Shown piece by piece: positions 20,566 through 61,661 of a stretch of 64,000 bases of DNA. Each line of letters begins with the position of its first letter. The first letter of the stretch is position 1. Made by a program: the position numbers and the translations under genes. This DNA is from Mytilus trossulus (taxonomy: Eukaryota), in contig NC_086376.1 of NCBI RefSeq assembly GCF_036588685.1, positions 60,078,001 to 60,142,000 of the forward strand. The letters run 5' to 3'. Below the pieces are notes generated by a model. That model saw only the letters and a program-made list of their open reading frames with translations. It was not told the origin of the DNA and made no database searches.

Positions 20566-20620
20566 TGCTGATATGTATTTAGTTTTGATGTAGTTTACAC
20601 GTATTTATTTAAAGTAATGA

Positions 20621-20626
20621 AATAAA
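20621..20626 (+). terminator. Probable polyadenylation signal of the carboxylesterase-like gene
   Basis: AATAAA 55 nt after the stop codon. Confidence 0.5.
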
Positions 20627-20837
20627 CACTCGACAATCAGTATAACGATGCTTATATCTTCAGAGTTAATGTTTGAGAAGCACTGCTTCGTTAGCTTCTA
20701 ACTAGATAAAAAACATGAATCGCTCCATGTTGGATATAATCATCATTTCAAAGCATTTGGTATCACTGTAGTAGTTTACGGGAGTTTTTAGCCTTTCTTT
20801 TTTTCCAGTTTTCTCAGATTGGAACCAAAATATGAGT

Positions 20838-20975
20838 CAACAGACTGTTCGCAACAATACACTAATGCCTCAACCAAATATCAGGCGAGAATCAACACAC
20901 TGTTCGCAACAATAAACTAATGCCTTTACAAAATATCAGGCGAGAGTCAACACACTGTTCGCAACAATAAACTAA
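20838..20975 (+). repeat. 55-bp tandem repeat (~2.5 units, third unit interrupted by the Harbinger MITE)
   Basis: caacacactgttcgcaacaataaactaatgcc.. at 20838, 20893 and 20948; the third unit resumes at 22335. Confidence 0.9.
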
Positions 20976-22334
20976 GGCCGTGTTCACACCAAATGCCGTG
21001 TAGAGTAAACATATTTACAATAAGTCTAGTGTAGTGTACACTGGTTTCACATTACATTTGTTCACATCTATACACCTTGTTTAGCTACCTGTACATAAGA
21101 TTTGTTCCCACTTGTAAACTATATGTCTTTTAAATGTTCATCACGTAGAACTGAATTCAAAATTTTTGGAAAATGTTTCTAGCGGTAAGGGAACAACCAT
21201 TTGACTTCAAAGGGAGTGGGGATGGGAATGGAAATATGCCGATCCCGAATTTGATAAAAAAAAAATGGTCATACAGATGATAAAAAAATTATTCTGAATC
21301 AAGAGTTTTCCCATACATTATAGTGTTAAATATTGAAAAAAAAGTATTTGATCACCAGCATCGGAAAAAAAGGAATACAAACGTACGCGCGAAAAAAATC
21401 TGACTCAGATAAAAAAAAAATAACCCTCCCCCTTTTTTAAGATAAGTGGTTGCTACTTTATGAAAGCCATTTTATAATTTGTAGTAGATTGAATATACTA
21501 GAGAAGTCTCGATAACGCATTAGAAAACGTTAGCTGCAACAGCGTACTTACAGCCGAAAAAAAAGGGTTGAGATATTAGGGATTACTACATTTTTATCTT
21601 TTCTGTTCGTTTCAAATGGTATTTCTTCTCCAAGGAGTATTTGGTAAAGGAATAGGGTAACGTTTTTTTTTTTATTTTACGTTTTTTGAGTAAAGACCAG
21701 TGGAGAATATTTCCGTGTCCGTCAAATCGAGGGGAGGGGGGCGTGAGCTATTGATTTTTTTTCAGGACAAATTTTGGTGACAAGTCGCAATCAATTTTAG
21801 CATTATATATAGTGGCAGCTGAGGGTGAAACAAACAATTTTTTTTTCAGGGCCAAAAACTGGAAACATTTTTTGTTTCCAAAACAAAATCCATAGCTCAC
21901 CACCACCCCCTTGCCTTTATGTTTTATACTCAACTATAATAGCCCCCCCCCCCCCCCCCCGAAAATCAATTCGTTGCTGCCTTATGGGTTCGGCAATGAT
22001 GCTGCTTTGAGTCTTGATTAATAATGTACGTTAATTTTTTTTAACAAAAAAAATCTGTAAAATTTAGACAACTAATAATTATCAAAAATATCAATTTTAC
22101 TCAAAAATATTTTCCTCCTTAAATATATACACGATAAAACTAATGTCCTAAATGCCTAGTTTTGTGTACACTTAACCTACACAAAACCTACATTGACTAT
22201 CGACTGTGTGTAGGTAAAACATGATTTAAACTACATATAAACATTGAGTTTTATCAATGGGAACGCAATTGTGTTTAGTTTACGTGTGAGTTACACTAAC
22301 ACAACACCGAATTTAGGTCAATGTGAACACGGCC
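20976..22334. mobile_element. Non-autonomous PIF/Harbinger-type element, probably with nested smaller insertions
   Basis: Perfect 13-bp TIRs GGCCGTGTTCACA / TGTGAACACGGCC; TAA duplication at 20973-20975 and 22335-22337. Confidence 0.88.
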
Positions 22335-23858: not shown

Positions 23859-23910
23859 ATGTTAACATTAATTATAAGTGTTTTAATTGGAATATTGAAC
23901 GGTGTTTTGG
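23859..23910 (+). CDS. Probable signal-peptide exon of the Ig-superfamily (Lachesin/IgLON-like) gene
   Basis: ATG at 23859 gives MLTLIISVLIGILNGVL(G), then the strong donor G|GTGAGT; phase 1 matches both 43678 and 55561. Linkage to the downstream exons is inferred. Confidence 0.65.
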
Positions 23911-37910: not shown

Positions 37911-37962
37911 ATCTCATTCTTTTCTGCACGATTGATTGCAAACGTCAAAGACAACGTATTGA

Positions 37963-38200
37963 ATTATAATCCTGGTAACTTTAATAACTATTTACACCAT
38001 TGGGTCGATGCCACTGCTGGTGGACGTTTTGTCGATGGTTTCACCAGCCCAGTAGTCAGCCACTCGGTGTTGGCATGAATATCAATTATATGGCATTTCT
38101 TTTTTTATTAATTTGCTGTTTACAAAACTTTAAATTTTCGAAAAAAACTAAGATTTTCTTATCCCATGAATCGATTACCTTAGCCGCATATGGCACAATT
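37963..38200 (+). repeat. Partial 356-bp-family unit without the hammerhead
   Basis: Matches ~57390-57620 (tgggtcgatgccactgctggtggac...ccagcccagtagtcagc). Confidence 0.75.
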
Positions 38201-39874
38201 TTTGTAAAGAACATTTTAACTGTATTTTCTGATATGTTCCGTAGAAATACTTCTGTAACAAACTTTTCAATTTGTGACTCTCATGTATTCATGTATTCGA
38301 CCATTTCAGTTTCAACCATACACTTAATAAGATGAAATTACCGAATCTGACACATTTTTAAGGCATTTAAACGTAAATGTATTTTCACATCCCGCTCTGC
38401 CGGGAAATCAATGCTTCAACAATTGTTTTATATACAAAAATACGAATTTAAACATTATTTTTTGTGTGTTTTTCTTCTGTTCATCATTCATGTAATGCAC
38501 GTAAAGCTATTTAAAACTACGAAACAAAACAAAAACAACTTTTAAATGATAAGAAAGAATTAACCTCTGCTCTTTTACTGTTTCTGATGCCAATGAAGTA
38601 ATTCAGCAAAGTGAAGTTGAAAGAAAATAGTTTATGTGTTAACTGGCTATTAAACTTCTCATACGTAATTAGCAGCATCTAACAATACACTTGGTTTGTA
38701 CCACAAACAGAACCTTACAAATACAGTGTATACTGAGATAAAATAAAATACGAGTGAATATGACAACGCAGCTATATAGCATGAGTTTTTATATATTTGT
38801 GGCTTTAACGTTCATAATTTCGATATCATGAGACAACAGTGAAACCACAACAAGCCGTTATATCTGATAGTTACATTATAATTCTATAATTCTGACAGAT
38901 TTCATATTTATAGTAGTTACATTATAATTTCATGTCAAAAATTTCGTTGTCTATGACGTTTGCAATTGATCGTGTAGACAAGAATGAGAGCATATTTCTA
39001 ACCAATGACGAGAAGTAACGTTACAAGAGGTTGGGGTATAAAGTATAATGCATGGTAAACATACTCAAAATAGAGTTTTAAAGAAACAAAGGACGTTTCA
39101 GTGATGAAATCATTGTTCTACAATACTATTGCTAAATTCAACACATTGAAACTAGACATCCAATAAAAAGTAAAATCACAAAAATACTGAACTCCGAGGA
39201 AAATTCAATCGGAAAGTCCATAATTAAATGGCAAACTAAAAAGCCCAAAGCTACATCAAAAGAATGGATACCAACAACGATTGTTGATATTATTTCTGTG
39301 AACACAGTTTACCTTTTGATAGAATACACTTTACACGGAAAGTTGCTAGTCTAACCAGGTTTTATGGCTCTCCCGGCTTTACTTCGCGTTTTTCCTATTT
39401 AGGTTATCCTTCATGACAGCATCACTCTTATCTTGTCTCATGTCAATATGATCTCTATCAGGAAAATGCACTGCTCTTTGACACTATAATTGTGATATTG
39501 TAGTTGGATATTCAAAATAGTTCAGCTTTCTAAACAAAAATCTTACATTTTGAAAGGGGGACGTTTTGATAAATGATATTATCATATTCAATTTCAAATC
39601 AAGAAAACAGAAGTCATTAGCTTGACAGAAACCAATAAATCAATCATTCACAGAATATTAACTCCGACAAGACATCTGCTATAATAATCTTTTTTAATTT
39701 TTAAATTCTTTTTTAAGGATCTTGATGTGTATGTAGGGATCATTAAACGAAACAGAGTAAAGATAAATATGTGAACTTTCTTGTTTTGATGTTTCCTTAT
39801 CATTCTAGAAATAATAAGGTTATAATCTGACGGAGGAACAAACTGAAGTCATGTTGACCTGTTTTGAGTTATGA

Positions 39875-40119: not shown

Positions 40120-42068
40120 TTTTTTATACGACCGCAAATTTTGAAAAAAATTTCGTCGTATATTGCTATCACGTTGGCGTCGTCGTCGTCGTCGTCGTCG
40201 TCGTCCGAATACTTTTAGTTTTCGCACTCTAACTTTAGTAAAAGTGAATAGAAATCTATGAAATTTTAACACAAGGTTTATGACCATAAAAGGAAGGCTG
40301 GTATGGATTTTGGGAGTTTTGGTCCCAACATTTTAGGAATTAAGGGCCAAAAAGGGCCCAAATAAGCATTTTCTTGGTTTTCGCACTATAACTTTAGTTT
40401 AAGTTAATAGAAATCTATGAAATTTTGACACAAGGTTTATAACCACAAAATAAAGGTTGGGATTGATTTTGGGAGTTTTATTTTCAACAGTTTAGGAATT
40501 AGGGGCCAAAAAAGGGCCCAGATAAGCATTATTCTTGGTTTTCGCACTATAACTTTAGTTTAAGTAAATAGAAATCAATGAAATTTAAACATAATGTTTA
40601 TGACAACATAAGGAAGATTGGTATTGATTTTGGGATTTTAGGTCCCAACAGTTTAGGAATTAGGGGCCAAAAAGGGACCCAAATAAGCATTTTTCTTGGT
40701 TTTCGCACCATAACGTTAGTATAAGTAAATAGAAATCTATGAAATTTAAACACAAGGTTAATGACCATAAAAGGAAAGTTAGTATTGATTTTGGGAGTTT
40801 TGGTCCCAACAGTTTAGGAGAAAGGGGCCCAGAGGGTCCAAAATTAAACTTTGTTTGATTTCATCAAAATTGAATTATTGGGGTTCTTTGATATGCCGAA
40901 TCTAACTGTGTATGTAGATTCTTAACTTTTGGTCCCGTTTTCAAATTGGTCTACATTAAGGTCCAAAGGGTCCAAAATTAAACTTAGTTTGATTTTAACA
41001 AAAATTTAATCCTTGGGGTTCTTTGATATGCTAAATCTAAAAATGAACTTAGATTTTTTATTATTGGCCCAGTTTTCAAGTTGGCCCAAATCAGGGTCCA
41101 AAATTAAACTTTTTTGATTTCATCAAAAATTGATAAATGGGGTTCTTTGATATGCCAAGTCTAACTGTGTATGTAGATTCTTCATTTTTGGTCCCGTTTT
41201 CAAATTGGCCTACATTACGGTCCAAAGAGTCCAAAATTAAACTAAGTTTGATTTTAACAAAAATTAAATTCTTGGGCCTCTTTGATATGCTGAATCTAAA
41301 CATGTACTTAGATTTTTGATTATGGGCCCAGTTTTCAAGTTGGTCCAAATCAGGATCTAAAATTATTATATTAAGTATTGTGGAATAGCAAGTCTTTTCA
41401 ATTGCACAGTATTGTGCAATGGCAAGAAATATCTAATTTCACAATATTGTGAAATAGCAATTTTTTTTTTAATTAGAGTTATCTTTCTTTGTCCAAAATA
41501 GTAAGCAAGAAATATCTTATTGCAAGATTTTTTTTTAATTGGAGTTATCTTTCTTTGTCCAGAATCAACTTAAATCTTTGTTATATACAATAAACAATGT
41601 ATATTCACTTTTTACTACCAACTGATAAATTTAAATAATCTTTACCATTCAGTGATAACAAGCAGTTTTTTTACATCATGTATTTAAATGAGTAGTAATT
41701 GTTGCAAACTCCATTAGAATATTTTAATTCAAATTAGTTTTGGAATAAGGGAAAGGGGGATGTGAATAAAAAATTGGGTTAAATTTTTCTCATTTGAAAT
41801 TTCATAAATAAAAAGAAAATTTCTTCAAACATTTTTTTGAGAGGATTAATATTCAACAGCATAGTGAATTGCTCTAAGAGAAAACAAACAATTTAAGTTC
41901 ATTTGAATACATTCATTCTGTGTCAAAAACCTATGCTGTGTCAACTATTTAATCACAATCCAAATTTAGAGCGGAATCCAGCTTGAATGTTGTGTCCATA
42001 CTTGCCCCAACCGTTCAGGGTTCAACCTCTGCGGTCGTATAAAGCTACGCCCTGCGGAGCATCTGGTT
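40120..42068 (+). mobile_element. Non-autonomous Helentron-associated (DINE-1/HINE-like) element, copy 1
   Basis: T-run; subterminal IR TTTATACGACCGCA (40123-40136) / TGCGGTCGTATAAA (42030-42043); partial IR after the left copy; (GTC)n; ~160-bp and ~130-bp internal tandem repeats; 3' hairpin GCTACGC-CCT-GCGGAGC; TT ends; no TSD. Confidence 0.88.
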
Positions 42069-43677
42069 GCATATGTTTTCTTCCAAAAACCACATGAGAT
42101 TTATTTCATCCATTGGGTGCAGATAATGGAGTTAAAACTGCTGACCCTTCAAACTTATTTTAGTTTGTCACCAATTTTTGTTTGGGTTAGTGATGCTCTG
42201 CAATCTTCATTTTATTGTGGACATTCATTTGTTTGTTGGTGACGGTCATTTCCATACTGTTTAATTTGTATTTAATTTTTCTTTTTTTTTTTAATTGTTA
42301 TCTTCTTCCCGCCTTTTTAATAAAAAAAGATGAAGGAATCTGAATTGTACTAAAGGTCCTGGTGATCTTATCTTGCCAGTGTTTACACCTCTTAATTTAT
42401 ATAAACACGAATTGTTCACCTAATTAACATTGGCATAGCTTTATCATTCTGTAAGGGAATGCATCATTTATTTTGATGGGTAGGTTAATTTAGATGTCAG
42501 ATTCCAATTTGACAGGGCTGCAGTTGTTTATAGCACTGTTATGCACATTGCTCCAGAGTCAGTTTTTTTGTACTCTGTTTTTTAACATCCTGTAACAAGT
42601 TGGCAAATCTTTGGCATTTCACACCTCCTGGCCTCCTTATTGAACTCTCAAATCAAATTGTTTGGCAAATGAAGCATAAACTATCTAAAAGGGTCAGCAG
42701 GTCTGTCAATCTTTAGAATGTAACTTACCATTAAAAGGTTATAACATCAAGAAATTTTATTCGAGAATGATGTTAAATTTTCAAAGTTTCTCAGCTCTTA
42801 AATGTATTGACAGCTACCAACCACATTATTTAGTGTCCTCACTTTTAAATAAATAATAATAATAATAATTTTATTTGCAAAAATACACCCATATGGGTCA
42901 AGCAAACACAAATACAACATTTAATATAGACAGATATAAATCTTGTACAACGTACAGTGAAAGCAGCCAATGTCAAAACTTTTTTCTACTTGAAGATTTT
43001 GTTTGAATAAGAAAGCTGTTTGGTATATCCAGGTTATATTATTAAAGGATATTTGCTACAAGTCCTCATACAATAGTTCTGTTTAGACAGGTTTCTTGTT
43101 TACATATTGTTTGCTTTACACAGGTTTTACTGTAATTACATACAAGCAATATCAGCTTCCAACATTAAAAGATATTTTTTTTGGATTTAATGTTTATGTC
43201 TTTGATAAGCTTGATAACTTTGTCTGTATTGGTAGACATGGTAGGTTGGCTCCAGAGGAGTAACCTCCTTAGAGATCACATGGCTTCCTTTTGATACTTG
43301 TTTATATTGAAGAATATTTCAAAGAAAATATCATTTTCAACACCATATTATTATCTCAAGTTAAAAGTATTTGTGACTGTGTCACATTCAAGGTCAAATG
43401 TTAAGTATGACTTTAGACAGTGCCACTTACAAACTTGAGTGTTTGGGTGTGAATTTAGATGTTTAAGAGCCTCTCAGTTGTTACATTCCAAATGACCTGT
43501 TTAATTTGATTGTAATTTCCTCTAATTCTAACCATCAGCTAGCATTTTATGTTTACCCTTGTAAGCTTGGTGTTTTGATAAGCTGAAAAGATATCTAAAT
43601 TTCGTGTACAGCAACTAAAAATTTAACATAGAAAACAGCTGTTGTAACAAACTTTTTTAAATCTTTGTGTTTTGCAG

Positions 43678-43867
43678 TTGGAGGACAACCCACCTTGAAT
43701 GTAGACTTTGAAATGAAGAATACCACCAAGTATAAAGGGGAAATTGTACGTCTCCGTTGTGAGATTTCTGGAAACCCGTTTCCCAAGTACAGTTGGTTCA
43801 AAGACAGCATAGAAATTGGAGATAAAGAGGACCGATTCAATGTGAAATTGACGCCATGGGGTTCAAG
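43678..43867 (+). CDS. Ror: ROR ectodomain exon a: Ig domain, first half
   Basis: (V)GGQPTLNVDFEMKNTTKYKGEIVRLRCEISGNPFPKYSWFKD...KLTPWGS(R); AG/GT; phases 1 to 2. Confidence 0.9.
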
Positions 43868-44839
43868 GTAATAATTTTTTGTATTTTCTTGTAATCTTTC
43901 AACATTGTGTATTTGATTTTTACAAAGATTTGGAAACTGCAGAAGATTGTAATCTTTCAACATTGTATTTTTGATTATTAAAAAGATTTGGAAATTTCAG
44001 AAGATAGTAAAATGAGTGATTGAAAATATAGTTTTAAAGTAAAGGTTAATTTTACTGTTGATGATTTAAACAAAGGAGGGATGCGAGAACATAAAATAAA
44101 CCATTTAGTGGATTAAGATAAATACAAAAATTGTTAAAATAAACTTTTGTTAAGAGTAAGAAAATAAACCAGATGTATTATCTCCTACAGCCTATAGATT
44201 TAAATTAGTCAAAGTAATATGGAGTTAATACAAGGATTATGTGTTTAGGTGAGGGATAGCTATCATCTGGTTGTAAGCAGTTATAAATCTGTTCATGTTG
44301 GCAATATTTAACATCTTTTGTATGTAAAATAAGCAAGCATGTTCGTAGTTTACTTTTTAGGTGTGCAGAAATGTAAACAATTTTTTCGCAAGATAGCAGT
44401 AACTGTTCTTATGCATTTCATTCTTGTAATTTATTTATCCATGAATTACATGCCACTGTACAGAAATGGATTCAAAACAAGCTATAATAGATAAAAAGCA
44501 CTATAACTTCTAATCTTAAATGTTGATGAAAAGACAAAACTAAATATTACAGACAAAAATCATCAAAAGAAGACATTGAAAAATAAATAACTGTTTTCAT
44601 AGTTTACATTATAAGTGCTCGGAACTGTAAACAATTTAATAACAACTGTGGCAACTGTTCTTGTATTTTTCATGCTTGTTGTTTTTTGTATTCTTGAACT
44701 TCATGCCATTGTACAGTAATGGTTTCAAAACAAATAATAACAGTAAATAGCTATTCTGAAAACAAACAAAAACTTAGCTAGGATGCTGAATTATAAAGAA
44801 CATTCAATTAGCAACTTATAAATTTATTTATTTTTTCAG

Positions 44840-44946
44840 ATTGAAGATAGAGAAATCAGTACCCCATGACAGTGGTTATTATATGTGTATAGCTGCTAAC
44901 AGGGCTGGAAACAAAAATGCTACAGCTTATCTACAGATCAAAAATG
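44840..44946 (+). CDS. Ror: ROR ectodomain exon b: Ig domain, second half
   Basis: LKIEKSVPHDSGYYMCIAANRAGNKNATAYLQIKN; DxGxYxC motif; phases 2 to 1. Confidence 0.9.
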
Positions 44947-45641
44947 GTAGGTCAAAGGGGGACAACTATTTTACAACTAAAGTAAATCATAAAGTTCTAA
45001 GATTCAGATTTTTATCTCTCAAACATACTGTTATTTAACAAGACAGTTACTAAGCTTCATGTATTCAGCACTATCACTTTTTTCTTCTTCAGTAATTAAT
45101 TTGAATTCTAGTATTTGCAAGCTTTATCCCATTGCTTTACTATTATCAAAATTAATAGGTATTTAAGATTCAGAATGCAATTTAAATTTCCATTTACAGT
45201 GCCACCACCTGCTTAATTTTAAGGTGGAGTCATACTAAATTATTTCTTTTATCTGTTTGAAAAGCATTAAATTAACATTTAAAAAATATCCCAATATTTA
45301 ATTGTTTTCACCTGCATTCAGCTGATAGTGTCAGAAATAGCTGAACATTTGTTAAGCTATAATGATAATAAGTTGGCTATCATAGTTCAAAGGTTATGGA
45401 GTTTTTAAATTCTTTTATATCTCCATTTGTGTTAAAAAAAACTCTAGTCCATAATAAAAATCTGTTAATGTGTAGTTTTTTGGATCCTCAAGCCACCAAA
45501 TTTTACCATATTATTTTATTTATTTCTAGTTTGTATTTCTTTTCAATTTTCTTATAAAAGATTTAATTTTATATCATTTCATAACCAATTAATACTGATT
45601 TTTACCTCTCTAATATTGTATTTCCACATTTTTTTCCACAG

Positions 45642-45729
45642 AACATCCTCCCAAAAAGGATAACAAGGGTGGAGGATCTAAGACTGATGTGGATTCATCA
45701 TTCCCAGATCTAGGGGATGATACAGATAG
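45642..45729 (+). CDS. Ror: ROR ectodomain exon c: Ig-CRD linker
   Basis: ccacag acceptor; (E)HPPKKDNKGGGSKTDVDSSFPDLGDDTD(R); AG|GTAAGT donor; phases 1 to 2, needed to keep frame between exons b and d. Confidence 0.8.
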
Positions 45730-46920
45730 GTAAGTTCAGTCAATACCAGGAAATATTCCATCTCTGGAATTAAAAGGTTGTTTATTTATACATTTGCATT
45801 CGACAAATGTATTCTTCAAACTGAACAGAATTTGGATTTATTTTAACACATGGTTCAAAGTCTATAAATTGATTATGAAAATAAGAACTCAGTTATTATT
45901 TTTTGTAAATTCTCTATAAATTTCATTTTGAATTAAAAGAAAGTAACAGTAAGAATATTTTTTACTTATCTTCTAATTAAATGAAGAAGTAGAGAAAGAA
46001 AGTGTATAGACTAATCTAAAAATGGTTAAATACTATGACCAAAAAACTTGTCTTAAGTTGCATTTTAAGATGGAAAATTTTCTTTAAAGATTTTCTGGAA
46101 AGTATGATCCAGAAATATATAAAAAGTAAGTAATCATTTTAATGGATTGAGGGTTTGCATGGCTTCTATTTACATTTTTTATCTTTTAATTATACTTTTT
46201 CCCTGACTATTTGTAGGATTTCATACACACTCTTTATATAGTTTTGATTGCTAGTGCTTTAAATTTTAATTTGTGAAAGATTTTTTGATTTTTTAATTGC
46301 AAATTATGAGGGGTCAGCAAGCATTTGCAGCTCTGCCACCCATCTTTTTGAATTAGTACATAAAAATTGAAAAAAAATCTGTGTAAATAGAAGCACATAT
46401 GAAATCCCAATTCTTAATTGTATCTATATATTGTCATCCTGCTTTTTGGCTATTCTGCGGCAGTCATTCATATGTTTATATATATTTTGATGGCTTGCAC
46501 TTGCCTTTTGTGAATTTTCTGTGTTTTCAATTACACTGCATTCACTATCCTCTTCTTTAAAAACTAATTCTATGTAAAATATTTCATCTTGCAGTGACTA
46601 GATCTGATATAAAATATTATTAAACCTGTATAATAATGGTAAAGAGCACGCAAAAGAAGAAAAATATTTAGAAATTATAAAAAACATTGCAAGATGAAAT
46701 TATTAAATTCTGTACATTTTTAGCTCTAATGTGAATCAATATTAATTTTCTATTTGTAACAATACTGTATTGAGTTAGCTTCAAGCTAATTTTTCTCAAG
46801 CTTTTTCCTAATAATGCTTTGCATAATAATTTTCATGTTCTTACTCTAAATGTAACAACTAATAAGACTATTATACAAGAGCTGTTGATCTTTACAATAT
46901 GCAATTAACCCATGATACTA

Positions 46921-47370
46921 TACAGTTAACCTGTACATGAGCAAACCTTTACACTAAATAGTTAACATTTGCCCAATGGAGTTAACCTTTACATTATACA
47001 GTTAACCTTGACACTTTATAGTTAACCTTGACACTTTATAGTTAACCTTTACACTATGACAGTTAACCTCTCACTATACAGTTTACCTTTACCTTTACAC
47101 TATACAGTTTACCTTGACACTTTATAGTAAACCTTTAAACTACAACAGTTAACCTTTACACTATATAGTTAACCTTGACACTATACAGTTAACCTTGACA
47201 CTTTATAGTTAACCTTGACACTATACAGTTAACCTTGACACTTTATAGTTAACCTTTACACTATAACAGTTAACCTCTCACTATACAGTTTACCTTTACC
47301 TTTACACTATAAAGTTAACCTTTACACTTCAGTTAACCCTTACACTAGTTAACCTTCACACTATACAGTT
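46921..47370 (+). repeat. 20-bp minisatellite
   Basis: About 20 units of gttaacctt(g/t)acact(a/t)ta(c/t)a. Confidence 0.92.
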
Positions 47371-48098
47371 ATACAGATTGAAACTAATTTAGTAGCATAT
47401 ACATGGCATAAATATGATATATTCATAAAAAATTATAAAACAAAAAAGACAGAAGAGGACATAAGACTTCAGACAATCAGTTGCACAAATTTGTAAATTG
47501 ATAGAAATGCACCATTCAAATCTTTTAATTATGAATATTTCAAATGTGTAATTTACTTTGATTTGACATAATTTACTAGTTTCATAGTTTATTAAAGAAA
47601 GCTCAGCCGTAGAAGACTGTGTAACAGGAGCATATTATACACAATATAAATCGCAACATATTTCATAATACATACAGCATACATTTTTGAATTATACATC
47701 TGAAATATGTATGTTGTACATTTGTATGCTCATATTATTTTTAAAGCATGTTGAATTTTGTGATAGTTTTTAGTTTGTGTATAAATGCATAAAGGCAAAT
47801 GCTTGCTGTTATCTGATCTTTACATACATTATACCTTAGAATAGAAATGGATATCAAAGAAACTATGAACAGGTTTCTCATTTATGGGAGGAAAGACATA
47901 TTTTAAGAGAAACATGTCAAATAAATGTATAAAATTGGGAAATAACATGTAAAATAGATGAACCAATCTGTTATGGTGATCGTATTATAATTGTCAATAC
48001 ATTATTAAAAAAAAATCATCTTTCCTAGCTGGCAAAATGATTTTAATGATAATATGGAGAAGAAAGAGATTAGAATTTCTGAATACTAACTTTTACAG

Positions 48099-48250
48099 AT
48101 TGAAAGAGGAAAGCAGTGGCAGTACTAAAGATGACAGCAATGGTTTCTGTCAACCGTTTCGAGGAAACATGTGTGCCAGGTTTATAGGCAATCAGACAAT
48201 TTATGTCAATTCTGAGTATGCTCAAGGTGTAAAGGAAGAAAAATTTATTG
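48099..48250 (+). CDS. Ror: ROR ectodomain exon d: Frizzled-like CRD start
   Basis: GFCQPFRGNMCARFIGNQTIYV, compared with vertebrate ROR1 [21 protein letters not shown] (recalled from memory); phases 2 to 1. Confidence 0.93.
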
Positions 48251-48777
48251 GTATGTATGAATTAGCAGTGGCAGAGTCAACACTTTTATCAACAATTTAT
48301 ACATGTTTTTCTGGGAAAGATTAGGGTCTGAAACTAGGAACCTGCATTCATTGCTTCAAAAAGTGGGGGTATACGGTTTTACCTCTGTCTGTCCAACCGT
48401 TATATAAATATTTTTTATCCCATGTTCTCCACTTTGATCAAGTGCTCTAAAGATAGAAACAAATGAAGCAAGATTAAATTTACAATTAATTGGCTTAAGT
48501 TTTATATCTACAGATGGATCACTTAGGCAAACTGACAGTGTCAACTAAGTAAAATTAAAAGATCTCCCTGATTGGGTTTTGGTCATGCAATGGGAAATTG
48601 GCCTATTTCCTTTTTTCCTGCTTCATGATTTATCTAAGGTACCAATCAGCTTTTACATGTTTAGATACTTTTTAGCTAATACTGTCATAGTAGAATGAAA
48701 AAGAGAATTGATGTTAAAAGGGACATAACTCAAAAAATGTACTGTGTAAGTAAAATATTGTATTGCAATCTTTTCAG

Positions 48778-48987
48778 CTGCTTTTACTGTGATTGCTGCC
48801 TCCAGTGATATGTCAGCTGAATGTCAGAAGTATGCCATAGAATTTCTATGTTTCTACACCTTCCCTTTATGTGATCGTCAACATATCAACCCTACCCCTC
48901 GTAAAGTCTGCAGAGACGAGTGTGAAATGCTAGAGGGCACTATCTGTAAAAAGGAATATGTCATTGGTCGACACCATCCAATGATTG
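48778..48987 (+). CDS. Ror: ROR ectodomain exon e: CRD core
   Basis: AAFTVIAASSDMSAECQKYAIEFLCFYTFPLCD...PRKVCRDECEMLEGTICKKEY; ROR CRD cysteine pattern; phases 1 to 1. Confidence 0.93.
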
Positions 48988-49747
48988 GTAAGTTTGCTGT
49001 TATATGGGTTGATATCTGATTATTGGAATATGATTTAAAAGTGGCCCTTTTTAATATGATGTACTGGTTCTTTTGGAGTACCCTTTGTTGTTCTTTTTTT
49101 TACCTTGATTTGTATTGTCTGAATTTATTTATGAGATTTGGACATCTGTTAACACCTGGTGCCTCTAGTTTTTTTAACTGAAATAACCTCTGATCTTTGT
49201 TAAAAAGTGAACACTTCTTGTAACATTCAATTAGAAGGAATACATGTAAAATCTTTTGTAAATAACTTCAAACAGACTTCAAACTGTTTCAGATGTAGTT
49301 ATATGGTTCAGTTTTGTTAACAGTTTGAAGGTTTTAAATACCAAAGCTCCTGACAATTATGTGTATAATAAAAAAACAAGGGATGTAGTGTGACAATTGG
49401 CTGTTTCAGAATCTAAAGCATCATGAGTAATTTCATTGTTCATACCCAAAAGTGAAAAGAACGTTATGTTATTGAATTTCCATTGTTTATAACGTTTTAA
49501 ACCAATCAAAACACTTTAGTGTACGTTTTTGAAAATATTACCCAGAATGCATTAGATTCTGAAACAGCGAATTCATGATGTTTAACCCTCTGGGCACTTG
49601 ACATAACCCAAAGCAATAGAACAGCACTTTAACTGCTATTCTTCATCTAGAAGTCATAATGAGACATAAAAATGGATCAAAAGCACATACATAACTCAGA
49701 ACTAGTAGTATCATTTGCATAATTAAAATATTTTTTTTTGTTTTTAG

Positions 49748-49855
49748 GAGAAGGTTTCCTTCCAAAGTGCTATGACTTACCACCAAGAGGTACCCCAGAG
49801 GGGGATAAATGTAAAGGTATTAATGTACCCATTGATCCTACACAACGACCAGAAG
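49748..49855 (+). CDS. Ror: ROR ectodomain exon f: CRD end
   Basis: (G)EGFLPKCYDLPPRGTPEGDKCKGINVPIDPTQRPE; LPxCxxLP motif; phases 1 to 1. Confidence 0.9.
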
Positions 49856-50464
49856 GTATGTCACATCCTTATAGAAAATTATTGTTTCGTTTTTTGGTGG
49901 TTTTTTTTAGTTGTGATTCACAAAATTGAAAAATTATGAAGTCAAGTATACCAGTCAAAGATTCTTTTGTTAATAATTATAGAAGCTATTCAGTTTGTAC
50001 TGAAAGGTTTTCAAAAAAAAGCTAGTTGTTGAAACACAAATTGCTTGATTTATGTTATTTGTAAAGTACATTGTACTATTGATAATCTGAAGAACACTTA
50101 AACTAATGCATTATAAACAATATATGGAAATTGTCATTAATAACACCACTAAAAGTTAGGTAACAGTACAATGAAAAAGCTTGATGAAATATTGGCAAAT
50201 TAAAGGAGAAAACTTGTTTTATAACTTTTTATTTTTTTTAATTAACGCTACATCTGTTAAAAGTTTCCATTCAATCAGAATTAAAATGGTAGACAATGAT
50301 ATGCCTAGTCAGACACTATACATTGTGATTATATTTTATTTTATTTTCAGACTTCTGTATTATGTATTTGCAAAAAGGAATTGTAACACGATTTTATACC
50401 TTCCTCTAATATCAATATATTGTGTGAATTTCTATGCTTATTTACTGTTTCCTTGTTTTTTAAG

Positions 50465-50590
50465 TTCACACATGTTATGGTGGTAATGGCATGAAATACA
50501 AAGGATCTATCAATCACAGTCGGTCTGGAAGGCCGTGTATGAACTGGAAAAATAATCCACATTTTAAAGGCAGTGAATATCCTGATCTAG
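50465..50590 (+). CDS. Ror: ROR ectodomain exon g: Kringle, first half
   Basis: (V)HTCYGGNGMKYKGSINHSRSGRPCMNWKNNPHFKGSEYPDL; CYxGxGxxYxG..SGxxCxxW motif; phases 1 to 1. Confidence 0.9.
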
Positions 50591-51456
50591 GTTAGTGGAT
50601 GATAAACAATTAAGAAAACAGACATCTATATGCCAAAAAGAGGCTTAAAACAAAGGCATCATCCATAAATTAAGCAGTGACTACCAAAGATGTGTATTGA
50701 GCAATTGTTTCTCTTGTAACTTCTTTTAGATTACTATAAGACTGACTTTATCTTCACATATGTTTAAAAAATAAAAGATTTCATCAAACATTAATGACAG
50801 TTTATTCAAACAAAATTCAACAAAAAAAGGATGAGTAAAGGGTGGCATACATGATCAACAAGCATCTTTGTCATAATCTAGCTCTTTATCACTGTAAAAA
50901 TGAGACATTAAAATCTAAATTGACAAAAACAAAATAGTACAGACATTGGGTTTAACTTGGGACAGACACATTAATTTATGTCTGAGTAAGAAAGTTTTTG
51001 TTGGTATAATCATCATATATCTGTATATTGATAAGTTTAGATTATTTCTATTCCATTCATGATCTATATATCATTCAGTGAAGCAAAACAAAGTTTTCTC
51101 TGCCCTGATAACAGGATTGCATAATATATTTTAACTACATTAAAATATCTTTATAACTGGTCTGAAACATGTAAAGATTTTTCAAATCACACAAAATTCT
51201 GGTTTTCCTGTCAATGTAAAATATAAATATGCTCATCTGATTTCATTCTCATTTTGCTCTCATGTCAAAAACATATGCATATGAGTATTTAAAATATTTT
51301 GGTCCGATTCATGTTCATGTTGAAAAGATTAGGGTTTTGACTGAGATTGGTGAACTGAACATGAAAATGTGATTGTGGGAGCAGGACATTGGTATCACCT
51401 ATGGAGTTGTATGGACACATATTCTTGTTTTTTGTTATATTACATTTATTTTATAG

Positions 51457-51561
51457 GAAACCATCACCTGTGTAGAAACCCAAATGGTACATATACAGGA
51501 CCATGGTGCTATACCGACCCTTCATATCATCATACAGAATTATGTGATATCCCTAAATGTG
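51457..51561 (+). CDS. Ror: ROR ectodomain exon h: Kringle, second half (last ROR exon seen)
   Basis: (G)NHHLCRNPNGTYTGPWCYTDPSYHHTELCDIPKC; CRNP..PWCYT motif; donor G|GTATGT, phase 1. Confidence 0.93.
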
Positions 51562-52057: not shown

Positions 52058-52089
<32 letters not shown>

Positions 52090-53966
52090 CGAATACTTTT
52101 AGTTTTCGCACTCTAACTTTAGTAAAAGTGAATATAAATCTATAAAATTTTATCACAAGGTTTATGACCACAAAAGGAAGGTTGCTATTGATTTTGGGAG
52201 TTTTGGTCCCAACATTTTAGGAATTAGGGGCCAAAAAGGGCCCAAATAAGCATTTTCTTGGTTTTCGCACTATAACTTTAGTTTAAGTTAATAGAAATCT
52301 ATGAAATTTTGACACAAGGTTTATGACCACAAAAGAAAGGTTGGGATTGATTTTGGGAGTTTTGGTTTCAACAGTGTAGGAATTAGGGGCCACAAAAGGG
52401 CCCAAATAAGCATTATTCTTGGTTTTCGCACAATAACTTTAGTTTAAGTAAATAGAAAATAATGAAATTTAAACACAATGTTTATGACCACAAAAGGAAG
52501 GTTGTTATTGATTTTGGGAGTTTAGGTCACAACAGTTTAGGAATTAGGGGCCAAAAAGGGACCCAAATAAGCATTTTTCTTGGTTTTCGCACCATAACTT
52601 TAGTATAAGTAAATAGAAATCTATGAAATTAAACACAAGGTTTATGACCATGAAAGGAAGGTTGGTAATGATTTTGGGAGTTTTGGTCCCAACAGTTTAG
52701 GAATGAGGGACCCAAAGGGTCCAAAATTAAACTTTGTTTGATTTCATCAAAATTGAATAATTGGGGTTCTTTGATATGCCGAATCTAATTGTGTATGTAG
52801 ATTTTTAACTTTTGTCCCTTTTTCAAATTGGTCTACATTAAGGTCCAAAGGGTCCAAAATTAAAATTCGTTTGATTTTGACAAAAAATTAATCGTTTGTG
52901 TTCTTTGATATGCTGAATCTAAAAATGTACTTAGATTCTTGATTATAGGCCCAGTTTTCAAGTTGGTCCAAATCGGGGTCCAAAATTAAACTTTGTTTGA
53001 TTTCATCAAAACTTGAATAAATGGGGTTCTTTGATATGCCAAATCTAACTGTGTATGTAGATTCCTCATTTTTGGTCTTGTTTTCAAATTGGTCTACATT
53101 AAAGTCCAAAGGGTCCAAAATTAAACTTAGTTTGATTTTAACAAAAATTGAAATCTTGGGGTTCTTTGATATGCTGAATCCAAACATGTACTTAGATTTT
53201 TGATTATGGGACCAGTTTTCAAGTTGGTCCAAATCAGGATCTAAAATTATTATATTAAGTTTTGTGCAATAGCAAGTCTTTTCAATTGCACAGTATTGCG
53301 CAATGGCAAGAAATATCTTATTGCAAAATATTGTGAAATAGCAATTTTGTTTTTAATTAGAGTTATCTTTCTTTGTCCAGAATAGTAAGCAAGAAATATC
53401 TAATTTTAAGAATTTTTTTTATTTGGAGTTATCTTTCTTTGTCCAGAATCAACTTAAATCTTTGTTATATATACAATATACAATGTATATTCACTTTTTA
53501 CTACCAACTGATAAATTAAAATAATCTTTACCATTCAGTGAAAACAAGCAGTTTTTTTACATCTTAATATTTTATGATGTATTTAAATGAGTAGTTATTG
53601 TTGCAAACTCCATTAGAAATTTTAATTAAGATTAGTTTTGGAATAAGGGAAAGGGGGATGTGATTAAAAAAATTGGGTTCAATTTTCTCATTTGAAATTT
53701 CATAAATAAAAAGAAAATTTCTTCAAACATTTTTTGGAGAGGATTAATATTCAACAGCATAGTGAATTGCTCTAAGAGAAAACAAAAATTTTAAGTTCAT
53801 TAGAACACATTCATTCTGTGTCAGAAACCTATGCTGTGTCAACTATTTAATCACAATTCAAATTTAGAGCTGAATCCAGCTTGAATGTTGTGTCCATACT
53901 TGCCCCAACCGTTCAGGGTTCAACCTCTGCGGTCGTATAAAGCTACGCCCTGCGGAGCATCTGGTT
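52002..53966 (+). mobile_element. Non-autonomous Helentron-associated (DINE-1/HINE-like) element, copy 2
   Basis: Colinear with 40120-42068, same orientation and termini; differs by scattered substitutions and small indels. Confidence 0.88.
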
Positions 53967-55560: not shown

Positions 55561-55658
55561 GTGCACCATTTTTAAACTACGATTCTTTGACCATTACTTC
55601 TATAAAAGGAAAGCACGTTGTATTACCCTGTGTCGTCAAAAACTTAGGATTTTCTAGT
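55561..55658 (+). CDS. Lachesin/IgLON/DIP-like gene: Ig1, first half
   Basis: tttgtag acceptor; (G)APFLNYDSLTITSIKGKHVVLPCVVKNLGFSS; GTAAGT donor; phases 1 to 0. Confidence 0.87.
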
Positions 55659-56262
55659 GTAAGTAAAATTTTGTTCAAGTAATTATAAAGATTATCTAGT
55701 GTAAAAAACTTATGATTTTCTAGTGAGGTAAAATTTTGTACATTGTTTGTTATAACTAAAACTTTTTCTAGGTAAGTAAAACGTAGGATCTTGTAGTTTG
55801 AGTATATACATTAAGATGTTTTCTAGTGCAACATTGTCTAGTGTAAGAATAAAATAGGATGTCTTAGTATAAGTTTGGCATTTGATTTCATTTAAAGCCA
55901 GACTAAGTATTTTATTAAGTAAGGATATACATGTTCTCACAATGAAGTGTACAACGGTTGGCTTTCTTGAACTAAACTAATTTGATACGAAGAAAATAAA
56001 AAATATAAACAAGCCAAATATATAAGCAATTAAAACACCGAAAAATATTTGACGATCTTTCAGCACTGCAGTGTTTCTGTTGTTTCGTTTCCGGTTATAG
56101 CTGATGTGTTTACCTCAGTTTTAGTTTGTAACCCAGATTTGATTTCTGTCAATCAATTTATGACTTACGAACAGCGGTATACTACTGCTGCCTTTATTTG
56201 ATATATAATGCTGATTAAGACAAATATTATATTCGTATCTATGTGATGAAATTCCTTTTCAG

Positions 56263-56464
56263 ATTATATGGTTTTCACCGAGCGGTGGTGCTATAGCTAA
56301 AGACACCCATCTGTATTCACAAGATGATAGAATCTCTGTACAACATCCTTACAAAACAGACTATAATTTAGTAATAGACAACATCCGGGAATCTGACGCT
56401 GGGATATACATATGTATGGTGTTAGGTGGACAATCAGAGAAACATGTCACTTTAAAAGTACAAT
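56263..56464 (+). CDS. Lachesin/IgLON-like: Ig1, second half
   Basis: IIWFSPSGGAIAKDTHLYSQDDRISVQHPYKTDYNLVIDNIRESDAGIYICMVLGGQSEKHVTLKVQ; phases 0 to 1. Confidence 0.9.
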
Positions 56465-56825
56465 GTATGTACTATGTCAAAATGGCAAAAAATATAAACT
56501 ATTGCAATTTGTGGTCAGCGATAGAGAACAAACATGTATAATGCTAATTCTCTATGAAACTAGTATATCAATGACATAGTACTTCCATGGATAGTTGATA
56601 ATCAGCCTAAAGGTTTCCAACAGGTTTTCTATGTTAACTCAGTCAAGTTAACCTACACATTAATTTTTCCAGGATTTCATGTTTTCGCATGTTTCCTATT
56701 GTTTTTAGAATTCGAATTGAGATCTTTGGTCAACTTTTCGCTAGATATTTACACGTAAGGAAGACTGAACAGTCATTTCTAACTCATGCAATAAACTGTA
56801 TTTTTATTTTGCAAAACAAATTTAG

Positions 56826-56984
56826 CACCACCAACGCTGGACGTACAAAGATCTACACCAAATCTTAAAATAGTAATGGAAGGGGATACGTTATCATTAA
56901 CATGTGCAGCTACAGGGAAACCGGAACCTGTAATCAGCTGGTACAGAACTGTAGAAACAGATTCACCCGAGCAGACAAAAGAAG
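56826..56984 (+). CDS. Lachesin/IgLON-like: Ig2, first half
   Basis: (S)PPTLDVQRSTPNLKIVMEGDTLSLTCAATGKPEPVISWYRTVETDSPEQTKE; phases 1 to 1. Confidence 0.9.
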
Positions 56985-57340
56985 GTATCTATGATATGAA
57001 GGACGAGACAAAATCCCATTAAACAAACCATCGAAAAAACCTGGTGCAAAACTAAATTTATGAAACAATTTTGTTAAGTTTTATTTCATCGGTTACGATT
57101 CGTCCCCGAGGGTATCACCAGCCCAGTAGTCAGCACTTCGGTGTTGACATGAATATCAATTATATGGTCATTTTTGATAAATTTTCTGTTTACAAAACTT
57201 TGAAATTTTCGAAAAACTAAGGATTTTCTTACCCCAGGAGTAGATTACCTTAGCCGTATTTGGCACAACTTTTTGGAATTTTGGGTCCTCAATGCTCTTC
57301 AACTTTGTATTTGTTTTGATTTTTTACTATTTTGATCGGA

Positions 57341-57384
57341 GCGTCACTGATGAGTCTTATGTAGACGAAACGCGCGTCTGGCGT
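57341..57384 (+). ncRNA. Type I hammerhead ribozyme 1
   Basis: gcguca-CUGAUGA-gucu-uaugu-agac-GAA-acgcgcgu-C/-uggcgu; GUC triplet, predicted cut after 57378; palindromic stem III. Confidence 0.88.
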
Positions 57385-57696
57385 ATAAAATTATAATCCT
57401 GGTACATTTGATAACTATTTACACCACTGGGTCGATGCCACTTCTGGTGGACGATTCGTCCCCGAGGGTATCACCAGCCCAGTAGTCAGCACTTCGGTGT
57501 TGACATGAATATCAATTATATGGTCATTTTTGATAAATTTTCTGTTTACAAAACTTTGAATTTTTCGAAAAACTAAGGATTTTCTTACCCCAGGAGTAGA
57601 TTACCTTAGCCGTATTTGGCACAACTTTTTGGAATTTTGGGTCCTCAATGCTCTTCAACTTTGTATTTGTTTTGATTTTTTACTATTTTGATCGGA

Positions 57697-57740
57697 GCGT
57701 CACTGATGAGTCTTATGTTGACGAAACGCGCGTCTGGCGT
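57697..57740 (+). ncRNA. Type I hammerhead ribozyme 2
   Basis: Same core; stem II guc/gac. Confidence 0.85.
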
Positions 57741-58052
57741 ATAAAATTATAATCCTGGTACATTTGATAACTATTTACACCACTGGGTCGATGCCACTGC
57801 TGGTGGACGATTCGTCCCCGAGGGTATCACCAGCCCAGTAGTCAGCACTTCGGTGTTGACATGAATATCAATTATATGGTCATTTTTGATAAATTTTCTG
57901 TTTACAAAACTTTGAATTTTTCGAAAAACTAAGGATTTTCTTAGCCCAGAAGTAGATTACCTTAGCCGTATTTGGCACAACTTTTTGGAATTTTGGGTCC
58001 TCAATGCTCTTCAACTTTGTATTTGTTTTGATTTTTTACTATTTTGATAGGA

Positions 58053-58096
58053 GCGTCACTGATGAGTCCTATGTAGACGAAACGCGCGTCTGGCGT
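58053..58096 (+). ncRNA. Type I hammerhead ribozyme 3
   Basis: Same core; stem II guc/gac. Confidence 0.85.
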
Positions 58097-59243
58097 ATAA
58101 AATTATAATCCTGGTACATTTGATAACTATTTACAGCGAACTTTTAGTACTTGTGACCACAATTCAAGTGGTGTCATTACTTTTTGCCATGACGTTGTCA
58201 GTTCGTCTTCGGCGTATGAGTTTGAATATCCCTTTGGTAACGTCCGGCTTACATTAACAATTCTAAATTTCAAGCGAATTTTATTTTCATTCCATTAAAT
58301 GAGGCGTTAAGGATAAAAGACAATCACTGAGATGTATCTACATCTTACTATTTAAACGCAGCTTAATTAAAAAAATAGATTTCTTTATAGTATTTAACAA
58401 AAAAAGGATTCTGAAAAAAAAATGATATCTTTAAAAGAAGATATGAAAGTGCAAACTTACTTATCTTTATTTAGAATCTAATTTGTTTATGTTTTCAAAA
58501 CAAAACCAGAAAAAGAACACATAAACATGATAAAACTCAACGGTTTAAAAATACACTCACTTTGCTTGATTGTTAAGTTCTTAGATTGATTGTAAAATTC
58601 TTGAATTGATTGTAAAATTCTTATCTTTACGGCTATTCTATGTAGTTTACAATGTGATAAAGATATCAAAGGCATTTAAAATTATCTTTTGTTAAGTAAT
58701 GATTGAATAAGGAAATTTTAAAGGTCAGAAAATAAAACGAAACATTTGATATCACTTTCTTTTCTAAAAACCATAAAGTTTATATATTTTTTGCATTAAT
58801 GTAATTGTTCCGACAGGTATGATGATTTAATCGAGTTAATCTCATCCGAAAAAATTGACAGTGATAAAAGAAACTTTGGCACGATAAGACTTCTATCTTC
58901 CAATGAAGAAAAAAAATATTTCTGTTATATATTATACAAACAAGAGGCTTACTGCAGTAACTCCATTATCTCCTGTAACGGCATTTAATTGAAGTGATAG
59001 TTATGTTAGTTCTGTTGACTTTGGTACAATTTCTTACAAAGACAAACTCATCTTACAAGATTTCCATAAAAGGGATTGTTTCTTTCATAGAAACATTCCA
59101 ACAAATTGTTCTTACGGTTAATTGATATAAAAGTAAAGAGATGGGGTATAATTGCCAATAAGACACACATCAGAAAAAGTTAAATGAAATAGATGTAGGC
59201 TTACGGACACCATCCTGATTAAGTTGGCCATTAAGAAAAAGTA

Positions 59244-59424
59244 CGGTCAAACCTGTTTAAGAGACCACATATATTATGCAAAAAAACTGTGTTATAAGAC
59301 CATTGATTTTAGGTCCCTCTGTGGTGCATTTTACGGAGATTAAACCTATATTAAAGGACCACCTGTCTTAAGAAATCACTTTTTAGCTCTCCCTTAGTTG
59401 GTCTCTTAAAAACAGGTTTCACTG
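59244..59424. mobile_element. ~180-bp Tc1/mariner(pogo)-type MITE
   Basis: Imperfect TIRs cggtcaaacctgtttaagagacc / ggtctcttaaaaacaggtttcactg; TA on the left, TT on the right. Confidence 0.6.
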
Positions 59425-59871
59425 TTCTCCTGTCACAGATGACAATAAATATGTTTCTTTCGTCGTAGCCAATATTCCTTCCTCTAATCCTCGCAATTAC
59501 ACCTCCGAATATCATGTAACCATTCGAAGTTGGAACGTCAGATCAGATTTTTATTGCACACGACATATCATAGATAGTTTTTTAGTGTTAATGTTTTGAA
59601 ATCTACATTTTTATGGATATAAACAAAAACTAGACTTTCTTTTTAACATATTTTCACGTCGTAATGAAATTGGTTCTCTTGCATCTAAGAAGTGTGTAAT
59701 TTGTTTTACGTTCGTTGTGTAATTAATAATAATTGATATTTTTAGATCTTGCTATAACATGTTCAATAGTATCCATAAAGGATGTACATTTAAATGTATG
59801 TTTTTCGCGCCTGAAGTTTTGTCAAATTGCAAGAAATTGGTCATTCATTATGTAATTATGTCTATTTCAAG

Positions 59872-60000
59872 ATCTTGGAACGACTGGTACGGTTTTATCA
59901 ATAAATGATATTGCCCGAGAAGCGGCTGGATCTTATGAATGTGTGGCATCTAACAATTTACCACCAAATGTATCCAGAGAAATTATAGTAACTGTTCATT
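59872..60000 (+). CDS. Lachesin/IgLON-like: Ig2, second half
   Basis: (D)LGTTGTVLSINDIAREAAGSYECVASNNLPPNVSREIIVTVH; GxYECxAxN motif; GTAAGT donor; phases 1 to 1. Confidence 0.88.
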
Positions 60001-60458
60001 GTAAGTACATGCACATCGATATCGATCCCTGAGTAACTTTTAGTTTCATAAAAGTGCACCACGTTTATTTGAGCCGCATCAGATACCTGATTACAGTTAA
60101 TCTGAGAGTGACTTGTTTAACCTATTTTACATATTATAAAATAACTTGTTTACCTTTTTTATATATTATAGAGTTACTTGTTTTACCTATTTAACAAATC
60201 AAAACTGAAATTTGTAAATCTCTTAAAAGATGTTTAAAAGCCCTGCCGCTATAATCAATTCGTTTTTCAGTTTGAATCATTTTTATGATTTCACTTAACC
60301 AAACAAAGAACAAGAAAGTGTAATCAGCTGTTTTTTTTTATGTCAACGAATCAGAATTAGGATATAGCATGCGAATTTATACCACACTTCGACAAATAGA
60401 TGATCTTCGAACTATAAAGCTGACTTAAAAAAGTATATAACGTTAAAATCAGAGAACA

Positions 60459-60770
60459 TAAAATTGAGAAAGGAAAAGGTGAATGTGTCAAAGCGACAAC
60501 AACCCGACCATAGAGCAGAAAACAGCCGAAGTCCACCTATGGGTCTTCAATGTAGCGAGAATTCCCTCACCCGTAGGTGTCCTGCAGCTGGCCCCTAAAA
60601 AATATGTATACTAGTACAGTGATAATGGACGTCATACTAAACTCCGAATTTATAAAAACAGCTTAAATTTAAAACATACAAGACTAACAAAGGCCAGAAG
60701 CTCCTGACTAGGGACAGGCGCAAAATTGCGGCGGGGTTAAATATGTTTATTGGATCTCAACCCTCCCCGC
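60459..60770 (-). mobile_element. SINE-like repeat, antisense copy
   Basis: Reverse complement of the 22410-22620 family, extended further. Confidence 0.65.
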
Positions 60771-61126
60771 ATATCATATTTATTGGCAGGGTAAACTTGT
60801 ACTTTTGTGATCTTAGATTTATAAGAAAGTGTACTATAGAACTCGAATAGAAGTATACAATACCATATCCATACTGAAACAGCATAACTCGAATATGGAC
60901 AGATAAAATTATGGCCATAAGAAAACAAAAAAGGCATAATGGTTTACTTTTTTAAAGTTGTTATTTTGATGGAGAGTTGTTTCATTGGCACTCACAGCAC
61001 ATCTTCCTGTATCTATTTAAAAGTCAAAGGCATTCAAATGTACTTCAGAATCAATTACTGATTTAGTGGCACGAACTTGTCTTGAGAAAAGCTTTATTCC
61101 ACGTTTGTCTTTTCTCTTAATTTTTA

Positions 61127-61320
61127 TCATTGACATTTCTTTCTGCCATTTTGTAGATGAACCTCAGATATACCACAAGAAGGACTAAGTGTCATTGATA
61201 TTTCTTTTCACCGTTTTGTAGATAAACCTCAGATATACCATAGGATGACCAAGTGTCATTCACATTTCTTTTCAACATTTTGTAGATAAACCACAGATAT
61301 ACCCCCAGAATGACCAAGTA
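61127..61320 (+). repeat. Tandem triplication (65/64 bp) of the Ig3 exon acceptor region
   Basis: tcatt..atttcttt...ttttgtagat.aacc.cagatatacc..a..a.gac.aagt at 61127, 61192 and 61256. Confidence 0.9.
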
Positions 61321-61585
61321 ACGAAGAAACCTGGTAAGACTGTTATATTCGAATGTGTTGCAGAGGGGTATCCCCTTCCTCAGGTTGTATGGAGGAGAAA
61401 TGGAAACATCATATCCAGAACCGAACCGTCGAACAAATTTAGACAGGATGTATATGAAGATAAAGATTCAATAATTTTGTCTCTACGAATCAATTACCTT
61501 GACGATAATGATTTTGGTACCTACACTTGTGAAGCAGAAAATAAATATGGATCATCAGCACACGATTATACCTTGGAAAAGACAG
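61286..61585 (+). CDS. Lachesin/IgLON-like: Ig3 (gene continues beyond the window)
   Basis: (Y)KPQIYPQNDQVTKKPGKTVIFECVAEGYPLPQVVWRRNG...LRINYLDDNDFGTYTCEAENKYGSSAHDYTLEKT; donor G|GTAATT. Confidence 0.92.
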
Positions 61586-61661
61586 GTAATTTCATTGTAG
61601 TATGCACATAACCAGACAAGGATGGGGCCAGACATATGGCTTCATAGTATATGACTGGGTT

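Follow-up and report, generated by a model that had tools for sequence, protein, structure and literature searches.

Non-LTR retrozymes have already been described in the genus Mytilus. About 5000 type I hammerhead motifs, which fall into two families of 350–390-bp repeats, are reported for M. galloprovincialis, and the corresponding circular RNAs are abundant in gonad and mantle and circularized by RtcB rather than by self-ligation (Cervera and de la Pena 2020, PMC7229834). A cloned mussel repeat cleaves as a monomer at about 0.1/min, and its ribozyme is devoid of most nucleotides for loop–loop tertiary interactions (PMC7229834). Retrozymes are seemingly promoterless and reliant on read-through transcription (PMC7761336), and the animal elements have been linked to, and proposed to derive from, the pLTRs of Penelope-like elements (Li, Clavereau and Pollet 2026, 10.64898/2026.07.22.740005). 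Penelope-like elements themselves show 5′ truncation, partial tandems and a tail of 30–40 bp (PMC8557442). In Xenopus, 42–44% of the retrozyme copies are intronic though introns are depleted of them, and local amplification by unequal crossing-over has been proposed (10.64898/2026.07.22.740005). Metazoan non-LTR retrozymes are recognized as non-coding repeats of 150–450 bp (350–390 bp in mussels) with a GC content under 45–50% that are self-cleaving, give rise to linear as well as circular RNA and are free of LTRs, primer-binding sites and polypurine tracts, with a target-site duplication of more than 4 bp when one is present. The array described here is, as judged from its sequence, very likely a young and selfish insertion of this known Mytilus retrozyme.

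The window, i.e. the whole 64-kb stretch of Mytilus trossulus DNA that we analyzed, contains the array on its forward strand at positions 57095–58135, as delimited by repeat finding. An earlier note on this DNA had described near-identical 356-bp tandem units at this place, and Tandem Repeats Finder reports the same with 2.9 copies, a period of 356, 98% matches and no indels. The array starts with a 5′-truncated unit (57095–57378, unit positions 73–356) that ends at the first predicted ribozyme cut. This is followed by two predicted monomers of 356 nt between cuts (57379–57734 and 57735–58090), which cleavage would release, and by a 3′ tail of 45 nt past the last cut (58091–58135), about the place at which other copies of the family also stop. 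The units differ from each other at seven positions in total (pairwise 3, 5 and 5, thus 98–99% alike over their whole length), all of which spare the catalytic core, and have a GC content of 38.5% compared to about 30% in the flanks. Monomer 2 is marked by the unit-specific variants 57944 G, 57950 A, 58049 A and 58069 C. Between 57023 and 59386 there is no open reading frame of at least 70 aa, hence none overlapping the array, and no LTR-like pair was found beyond the tandem units themselves. The locus therefore combines a hammerhead in each unit, head-to-tail repeats, low GC, non-coding sequence and dispersed multi-copy relatives, all of which are characteristic of metazoan non-LTR retrozymes, and the assignment to this class made in the earlier note is supported, the element being one for which cleavage and circular RNA have been reported in Mytilus (PMC7229834). 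It shares with the published mussel retrozyme the genus, the type I hammerhead, a unit length within 350–390 bp, the low GC, the tandem arrangement, the presence of two related genomic families and a circle predicted to sequester the ribozyme. No difference is apparent, the likeness to the clones MN642551–MN642576 being one of anatomy and size rather than of alignment (PMC7229834). As an element, it is very likely one copy of a known high-copy mussel retrozyme and, as such, nothing new. The available text of PMC7229834 gives no gene context, orientation or insertion ends. The available part of the study of vertebrate non-LTR retrozymes includes no mollusc and reports neither a strand bias nor the position of 3′ ends (10.64898/2026.07.22.740005). 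A search of the open-access literature found no study on sense intronic retrozymes of mussels or on retrozyme 3′ ends, both of which may be covered by the supplements of PMC7229834 and 10.64898/2026.07.22.740005.

All three units carry a canonical type I hammerhead. The pattern CTGATGA-GTC-loop-GAC-GAAAC occurs three times in the window, always on the plus strand (57347, 57703 and 58059), and in none of 100 shuffles. Since the three motifs score just below the Rfam gathering cut-off of 34 (32.2, 33.0 and 33.4 bits, i.e. 0.6–1.8 bits under it), a gathering scan of the window returned no hit, while an E-value scan with the full Hammerhead_1 model (RF00163) recovered all of them at 57341–57384, 57697–57740 and 58053–58096 (E 3e-6 to 9e-6). 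Each contains stem I (6 bp), stem II (3–4 bp), the GUC triplet and the stem III palindrome ACGCGCGU, which provides two base pairs and a tetraloop; stem II is 3 bp long in the second motif due to an A-to-T change at 57719 and in the third due to a T-to-C change at 58069. The predicted cuts fall at 57378/57379, 57734/57735 and 58090/58091, so that 57379, 57735 and 58091 are the first bases after cleavage. Pattern and Rfam E-values thus confirm the three hammerheads with CUGAUGA/GAAA cores, stems I and II, a GUC site and a self-complementary stem III that the earlier note had proposed, and the predicted sites agree with its cut positions bounding two 356-nt units. The note had further held that motifs with a short palindromic stem III cleave as dimers. 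A rationale for this has been given (PMC4209133), but a requirement for a dimer is unsupported as stated: stem III of the present motifs has two base pairs and a tetraloop, and the published mussel clone cleaved as a monomer. Most invertebrate hammerhead motifs cleave as monomers (PMC7761336). For the double-hammerhead fold, a gain in stability of 12 kcal/mol over two single hammerheads is predicted, and folding in this manner may speed up cleavage. In an alignment of 15 family motifs, 93% of the 165 cells pair and both-sided changes affect four of the eleven pairs, in stems I, II and III; the covariation score was reached by none of 500 shuffles, the two-sided changes all coming from two copies of a second family and hence representing one evolutionary branch and not independent events.

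Four further loci of the family are present in the 64-kb window. Three are relics, namely 37955–38207 (plus strand, 85% alike, unit positions 4–256, devoid of a hammerhead), 10540–10674 (plus strand, about 79% alike) and 11307–11488 (minus strand, about 84% alike), the latter two with a broken hammerhead core. The fourth, at 14703–15413 on the minus strand, belongs to a second retrozyme family of about 70% similarity and comprises about two units of about 350 bp with an AUC triplet, the palindrome AUGCGCAU and one intact and one altered core. This array starts at unit position 77, near position 73 of the main array, and occupies, in antisense orientation, an intron of a gene of the carboxylesterase family. 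Compared to the main family, compensatory changes are found in all three stems, and in stem III ACGCGCGU is exchanged for AUGCGCAU, a replacement of palindrome by palindrome that fits single and double hammerhead folding alike. Beyond the window, all six loci matched by the core pattern in metagenome contigs extend into unit sequence, while viral contigs gave no match to the pattern. In three DNA runs the unit reaches a very high summed contig depth, which is not a copy number, and head-to-tail unit joints are common family-wide. Three side observations concern the same stretch. The nucleophile-elbow motif of carboxylesterases reads GxSxG, and the corresponding region of the carboxylesterase-family gene (11640–20565) reads GQGAG, without the serine, so that its product is possibly a catalytically dead member. 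A composite repeat composed of a CGT microsatellite, about 3.9 × 161 bp and then 259/135-bp units is present at 40178–41365 and 52059–53249 and looks like one dispersed mobile repeat. Two more high-copy repeats (53400 to about 53970 and 56120–56255) are deep in the three DNA runs and in the RNA run X19.

The earlier note had placed the array on the same strand as its host gene, within the intron 56985–59871 and in the middle of the second Ig domain, with which splice sites and protein joins agree. The intron is of the GT-AG type and in phase 1 (GT at 56985, AG at 59870–59871), and the plus-strand exons on either side, 56826–56984 and 59872–60001, encode the first and second half of Ig domain 2 (aa about 118–170 and about 171–213 of P0001). 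In public Mytilus proteins, PEQTKE from the one exon is directly followed by DLGTTG from the other, within that domain. The host protein comprises 806 aa with a V-set domain and further Ig domains. A downstream exon encoding a 97-aa Ig domain is 98% identical to a M. galloprovincialis and 88% to a M. coruscus protein, and a neighboring exon matches a ROR1-like protein of M. edulis with 100% over 72 aa; from these matches alone the DNA would be assigned to Mytilus, probably to the edulis group. The array lies in sense orientation, with 394 nt from the donor to the first cut and 1781 nt from the last cut to the acceptor. Its sense strand harbors no GT(A/G)AG donor, no AG acceptor with a long pyrimidine stretch and no A(A/T)TAAA, and exonization or premature polyadenylation by the array was therefore dropped from consideration. 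As a separate observation, Ror-like ectodomain exons (aa 53–427 of M. edulis P0004; Ig, Frizzled and Kringle) occupy 43674–51560 on the same strand, and thus lie between the predicted first coding exon of the Ig gene (23859–23912) and its second (about 55561), the Ig region extending over 55561–61587. The first 52 aa of Ror and its membrane and kinase exons are absent from the 64-kb window, and the Ror-like series has its last exon in common with the partial M. galloprovincialis P0005. This layout reflects either interleaved same-strand genes, a truncated Ror copy or an artefact of the gene models; if the two genes interleave, the array would also be in sense within a Ror intron.

Taken as a whole, we consider it highly probable that the array is a young insertion of the known retrozyme, and propose for it a Penelope-type origin and slow cutting in this intron, with a likely nil to modest effect on the host. 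A reverse transcriptase of the Penelope type, with priming at the target site some 45 nt past the ribozyme cut, would have gone round a circular RNA (or along an uncleaved multimer) for about 2.9 turns, so that the 3′ end would be fixed and the 5′ end truncated. As no promoter of the element itself is known, transcription of the Ig gene would supply the RNA; read-through transcription as the source of circles is already the published model (PMC7761336). The hammerheads would then cut slowly (the in vitro rate of the family is about 0.1/min), either as monomers or, with a gain in speed, as a double hammerhead. Monomers of 356 nt would arise from a minor share of the transcripts or of the lariats after excision, and a host ligase of the RtcB type would circularize them, while splicing would likely be completed on most transcripts.

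We then considered what the RNA run X19 and the published rate imply for the host gene. The last 135 letters of record 12 of X19 lie on 56263–56397, and the run also covers 55628 and 55632 near a contig end, hence this low-depth contig appears to be spliced between two upstream exons and the Ig gene is likely transcribed. In the bin 56936–57071 the run has zero cover and is thus uninformative on splicing of the intron that harbors the array. X19 contains family sequence and joints that jump 356 back, but the same joints occur in DNA runs, and contigs cannot show RNA ends. Its depth of 2,746–22,306 over the unit versus about 3 over the exons is a sum over contigs, is of a kind with that of two other repeats and represents no expression level. 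By simple arithmetic on the published in vitro rate, 0.1/min per site, at least one of the three sites would have been cut after 1, 2 and 5 min with a probability of 0.26, 0.45 and 0.78, respectively, and the two sites that bound a given monomer would both have been cut with a probability of 0.01, 0.03 and 0.15. Cutting of the host pre-mRNA is thus plausible. These numbers also speak for the most serious alternative, in which the same insertion acts as a cis knock-down allele: three sense hammerheads would cut the nascent pre-mRNA prior to splicing and markedly lower the Ig mRNA, and perhaps affect a possibly overlapping Ror pre-mRNA as well. The stability predicted for the double-hammerhead fold, the depletion of retrozymes in Xenopus introns and an engineered fast hammerhead in a zebrafish intron, which caused an up to 20-fold knock-down of the mRNA (PMC11856399), point in the same direction. 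On the other hand, splicing is reported to proceed despite cleavage by an intronic hammerhead, but not when the cut is made by a fast HDV ribozyme (PMC2995048, citing Dye et al. and Fong et al.). The published mussel ribozyme, lacking most loop–loop tertiary nucleotides, is slow and hence nearer to the splicing-compatible case, from which a small effect is expected. In addition, the rate was determined at 37°C with 6 mM MgCl2, and cleavage in mussel cells is probably slower, and in Xenopus 42–44% of the copies are nevertheless intronic. A nil to modest effect on the host is therefore likely, a marked one doubtful, and we regard the knock-down allele as an unlikely, if still serious, explanation.

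Less probable still, though worth weighing, is that the array is an inert DNA repeat, generated by local duplication of one inserted monomer, whose motifs do not cut in their context. Isolated motifs folded no better than their shuffles (z of 0.49, 0.37 and −0.65), and the predicted active fold lies 5–10 kcal/mol above the local minimum free energy (MFE) fold and 9–13 kcal/mol above that of the circle, both of which sequester the core. The circular monomers fold modestly better than shuffles, a weak signal with z of −1.85 and −2.26 (4 and 0 of 60 shuffles as low). In Xenopus, one out of nine predicted dimers cleaved in vitro and eight did not, hence an intact-looking motif need not cut, and the unequal crossing-over proposed there would account for a local tandem (10.64898/2026.07.22.740005). 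Against an inert repeat, the seven differences between the units all lie outside the catalytic core, the published mussel clone was likewise predicted to be sequestered in its circle and yet cleaved (PMC7229834), and head-to-tail joints are common in the DNA runs throughout the family.

The insertion looks recent and is probably polymorphic, because public DNA contigs leave the window sequence at the left edge of the array. Four of 24 public runs, all of them in the form of contigs, were compared with the window, namely the DNA runs X1, X2 and X7 and the RNA run X19. In each of the three DNA runs, a contig over the upstream exon continues with sequence unlike the array: record 8 of X1 carries 241 letters of other sequence past 57096, record 24 of X2 carries 14 letters past 57096 and record 28 of X7 carries 1006 letters past 56987. 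The empty site is thus deduced from contig departure at one edge, and X1, which contains 81% of the words sampled from the region, might be heterozygous and still carry an allele with the array. Among metagenome contigs, the pattern for the orthologous exon matched 598 times, and none of these matches was confirmed. At the left junction TTAC is found at 57093–57096 and again at 58131–58134, possibly a 4-nt microhomology or a target duplication; no repeat of at least 5 nt was found at the two junctions of the array. The reading as a young insertion follows from the match in anatomy and size, the dispersed relatives, the 3, 5 and 5 differences between the units and the contigs that leave at the left edge. 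The apparent absence from other alleles, in turn, argues against a conserved role, i.e. against a domesticated ribozyme kept for host regulation like the ultraconserved intronic hammerheads of amniotes. With these the array shares a type I hammerhead in an intron, and its sense orientation and three intact cores, compared to the broken or missing cores of the other sense copies in the window, would suit such a role. The amniote motifs are single and conserved (PMC7761336), whereas the mussel array is tandem and belongs to a high-copy family, each of the three DNA runs has a contig that lacks it at this site, and its units are 98–99% alike throughout and not in the ribozyme only. We thus regard domestication as largely refuted and very improbable.

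The ends of the young insertion may also be informative on how it was made. The array begins at unit position 73 and stops at 45, so that neither end coincides with a cut. Among twelve copies, the seven with well-preserved 3′ ends (this array, L001, L002, two in L004, L005 and L006) lose similarity about 41–46 nt past the cut when judged by alignment, and at 26–45 when scored against the unit of the window alone because three of the copies belong to a sequence variant. The remaining five of the twelve misfit or cannot be judged, with two decayed copies at about 15–40, family 2 at 81 or beyond, one relic at 256 and L003 running off its contig end. A loose end at 57421, i.e. unit position 43, is also seen in X19, and the 5′ extents of the family copies vary widely. 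This clustering concerns few copies, and short-read contigs favor those with a ribozyme near unique flank. Fixed 3′ and variable 5′ ends would fit priming of the Penelope type on RNA that is circular or has not been cleaved: a reverse transcriptase with its start some 45 nt inside the monomer has to pass the position of the cut, for which a circular or an intact multimeric template would be needed. With Penelope-like elements the array shares type I hammerheads, partial tandems, 5′ truncation and a short 3′ tail (PMC8557442, PMC4209133). While this fixed tail and the proposed descent of retrozymes from pLTRs might suggest that the array constitutes the terminal repeats of an autonomous element of this kind, this is most improbable for the present locus, as no reading frame of at least 70 aa and thus no RT/GIY-YIG frame such as these elements possess lies between its repeats, and its hammerhead is canonical with a stem III and unlike the minimal kind typical of metazoan Penelope-like elements (PMC4209133).

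The young insertion is of value as a test case, being a probably polymorphic, intact and sense triple hammerhead in a defined intron, and it serves two questions: from which copies in the genome the abundant circles originate, and whether slow ribozymes of natural origin reduce the mRNA of their host. The clustering of 3′ ends adds a small, checkable hint on retrozyme priming. The most far-reaching version, a segregating sense insertion that turns the Ig gene into a Pol II source of retrozyme circles and at the same time into a natural ribozyme knock-down allele, seems to us rather unlikely. If it were true, it would, together with a fixed 3′ end of the family about 43 nt past the cut, be direct evidence at the genomic level for priming of a Penelope-type enzyme on the circle and for its passage over the ligation junction. 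Mussels would then offer polymorphisms of this kind by the thousands, with which orientation-dependent selection and exon tethering could be tested in the wild.
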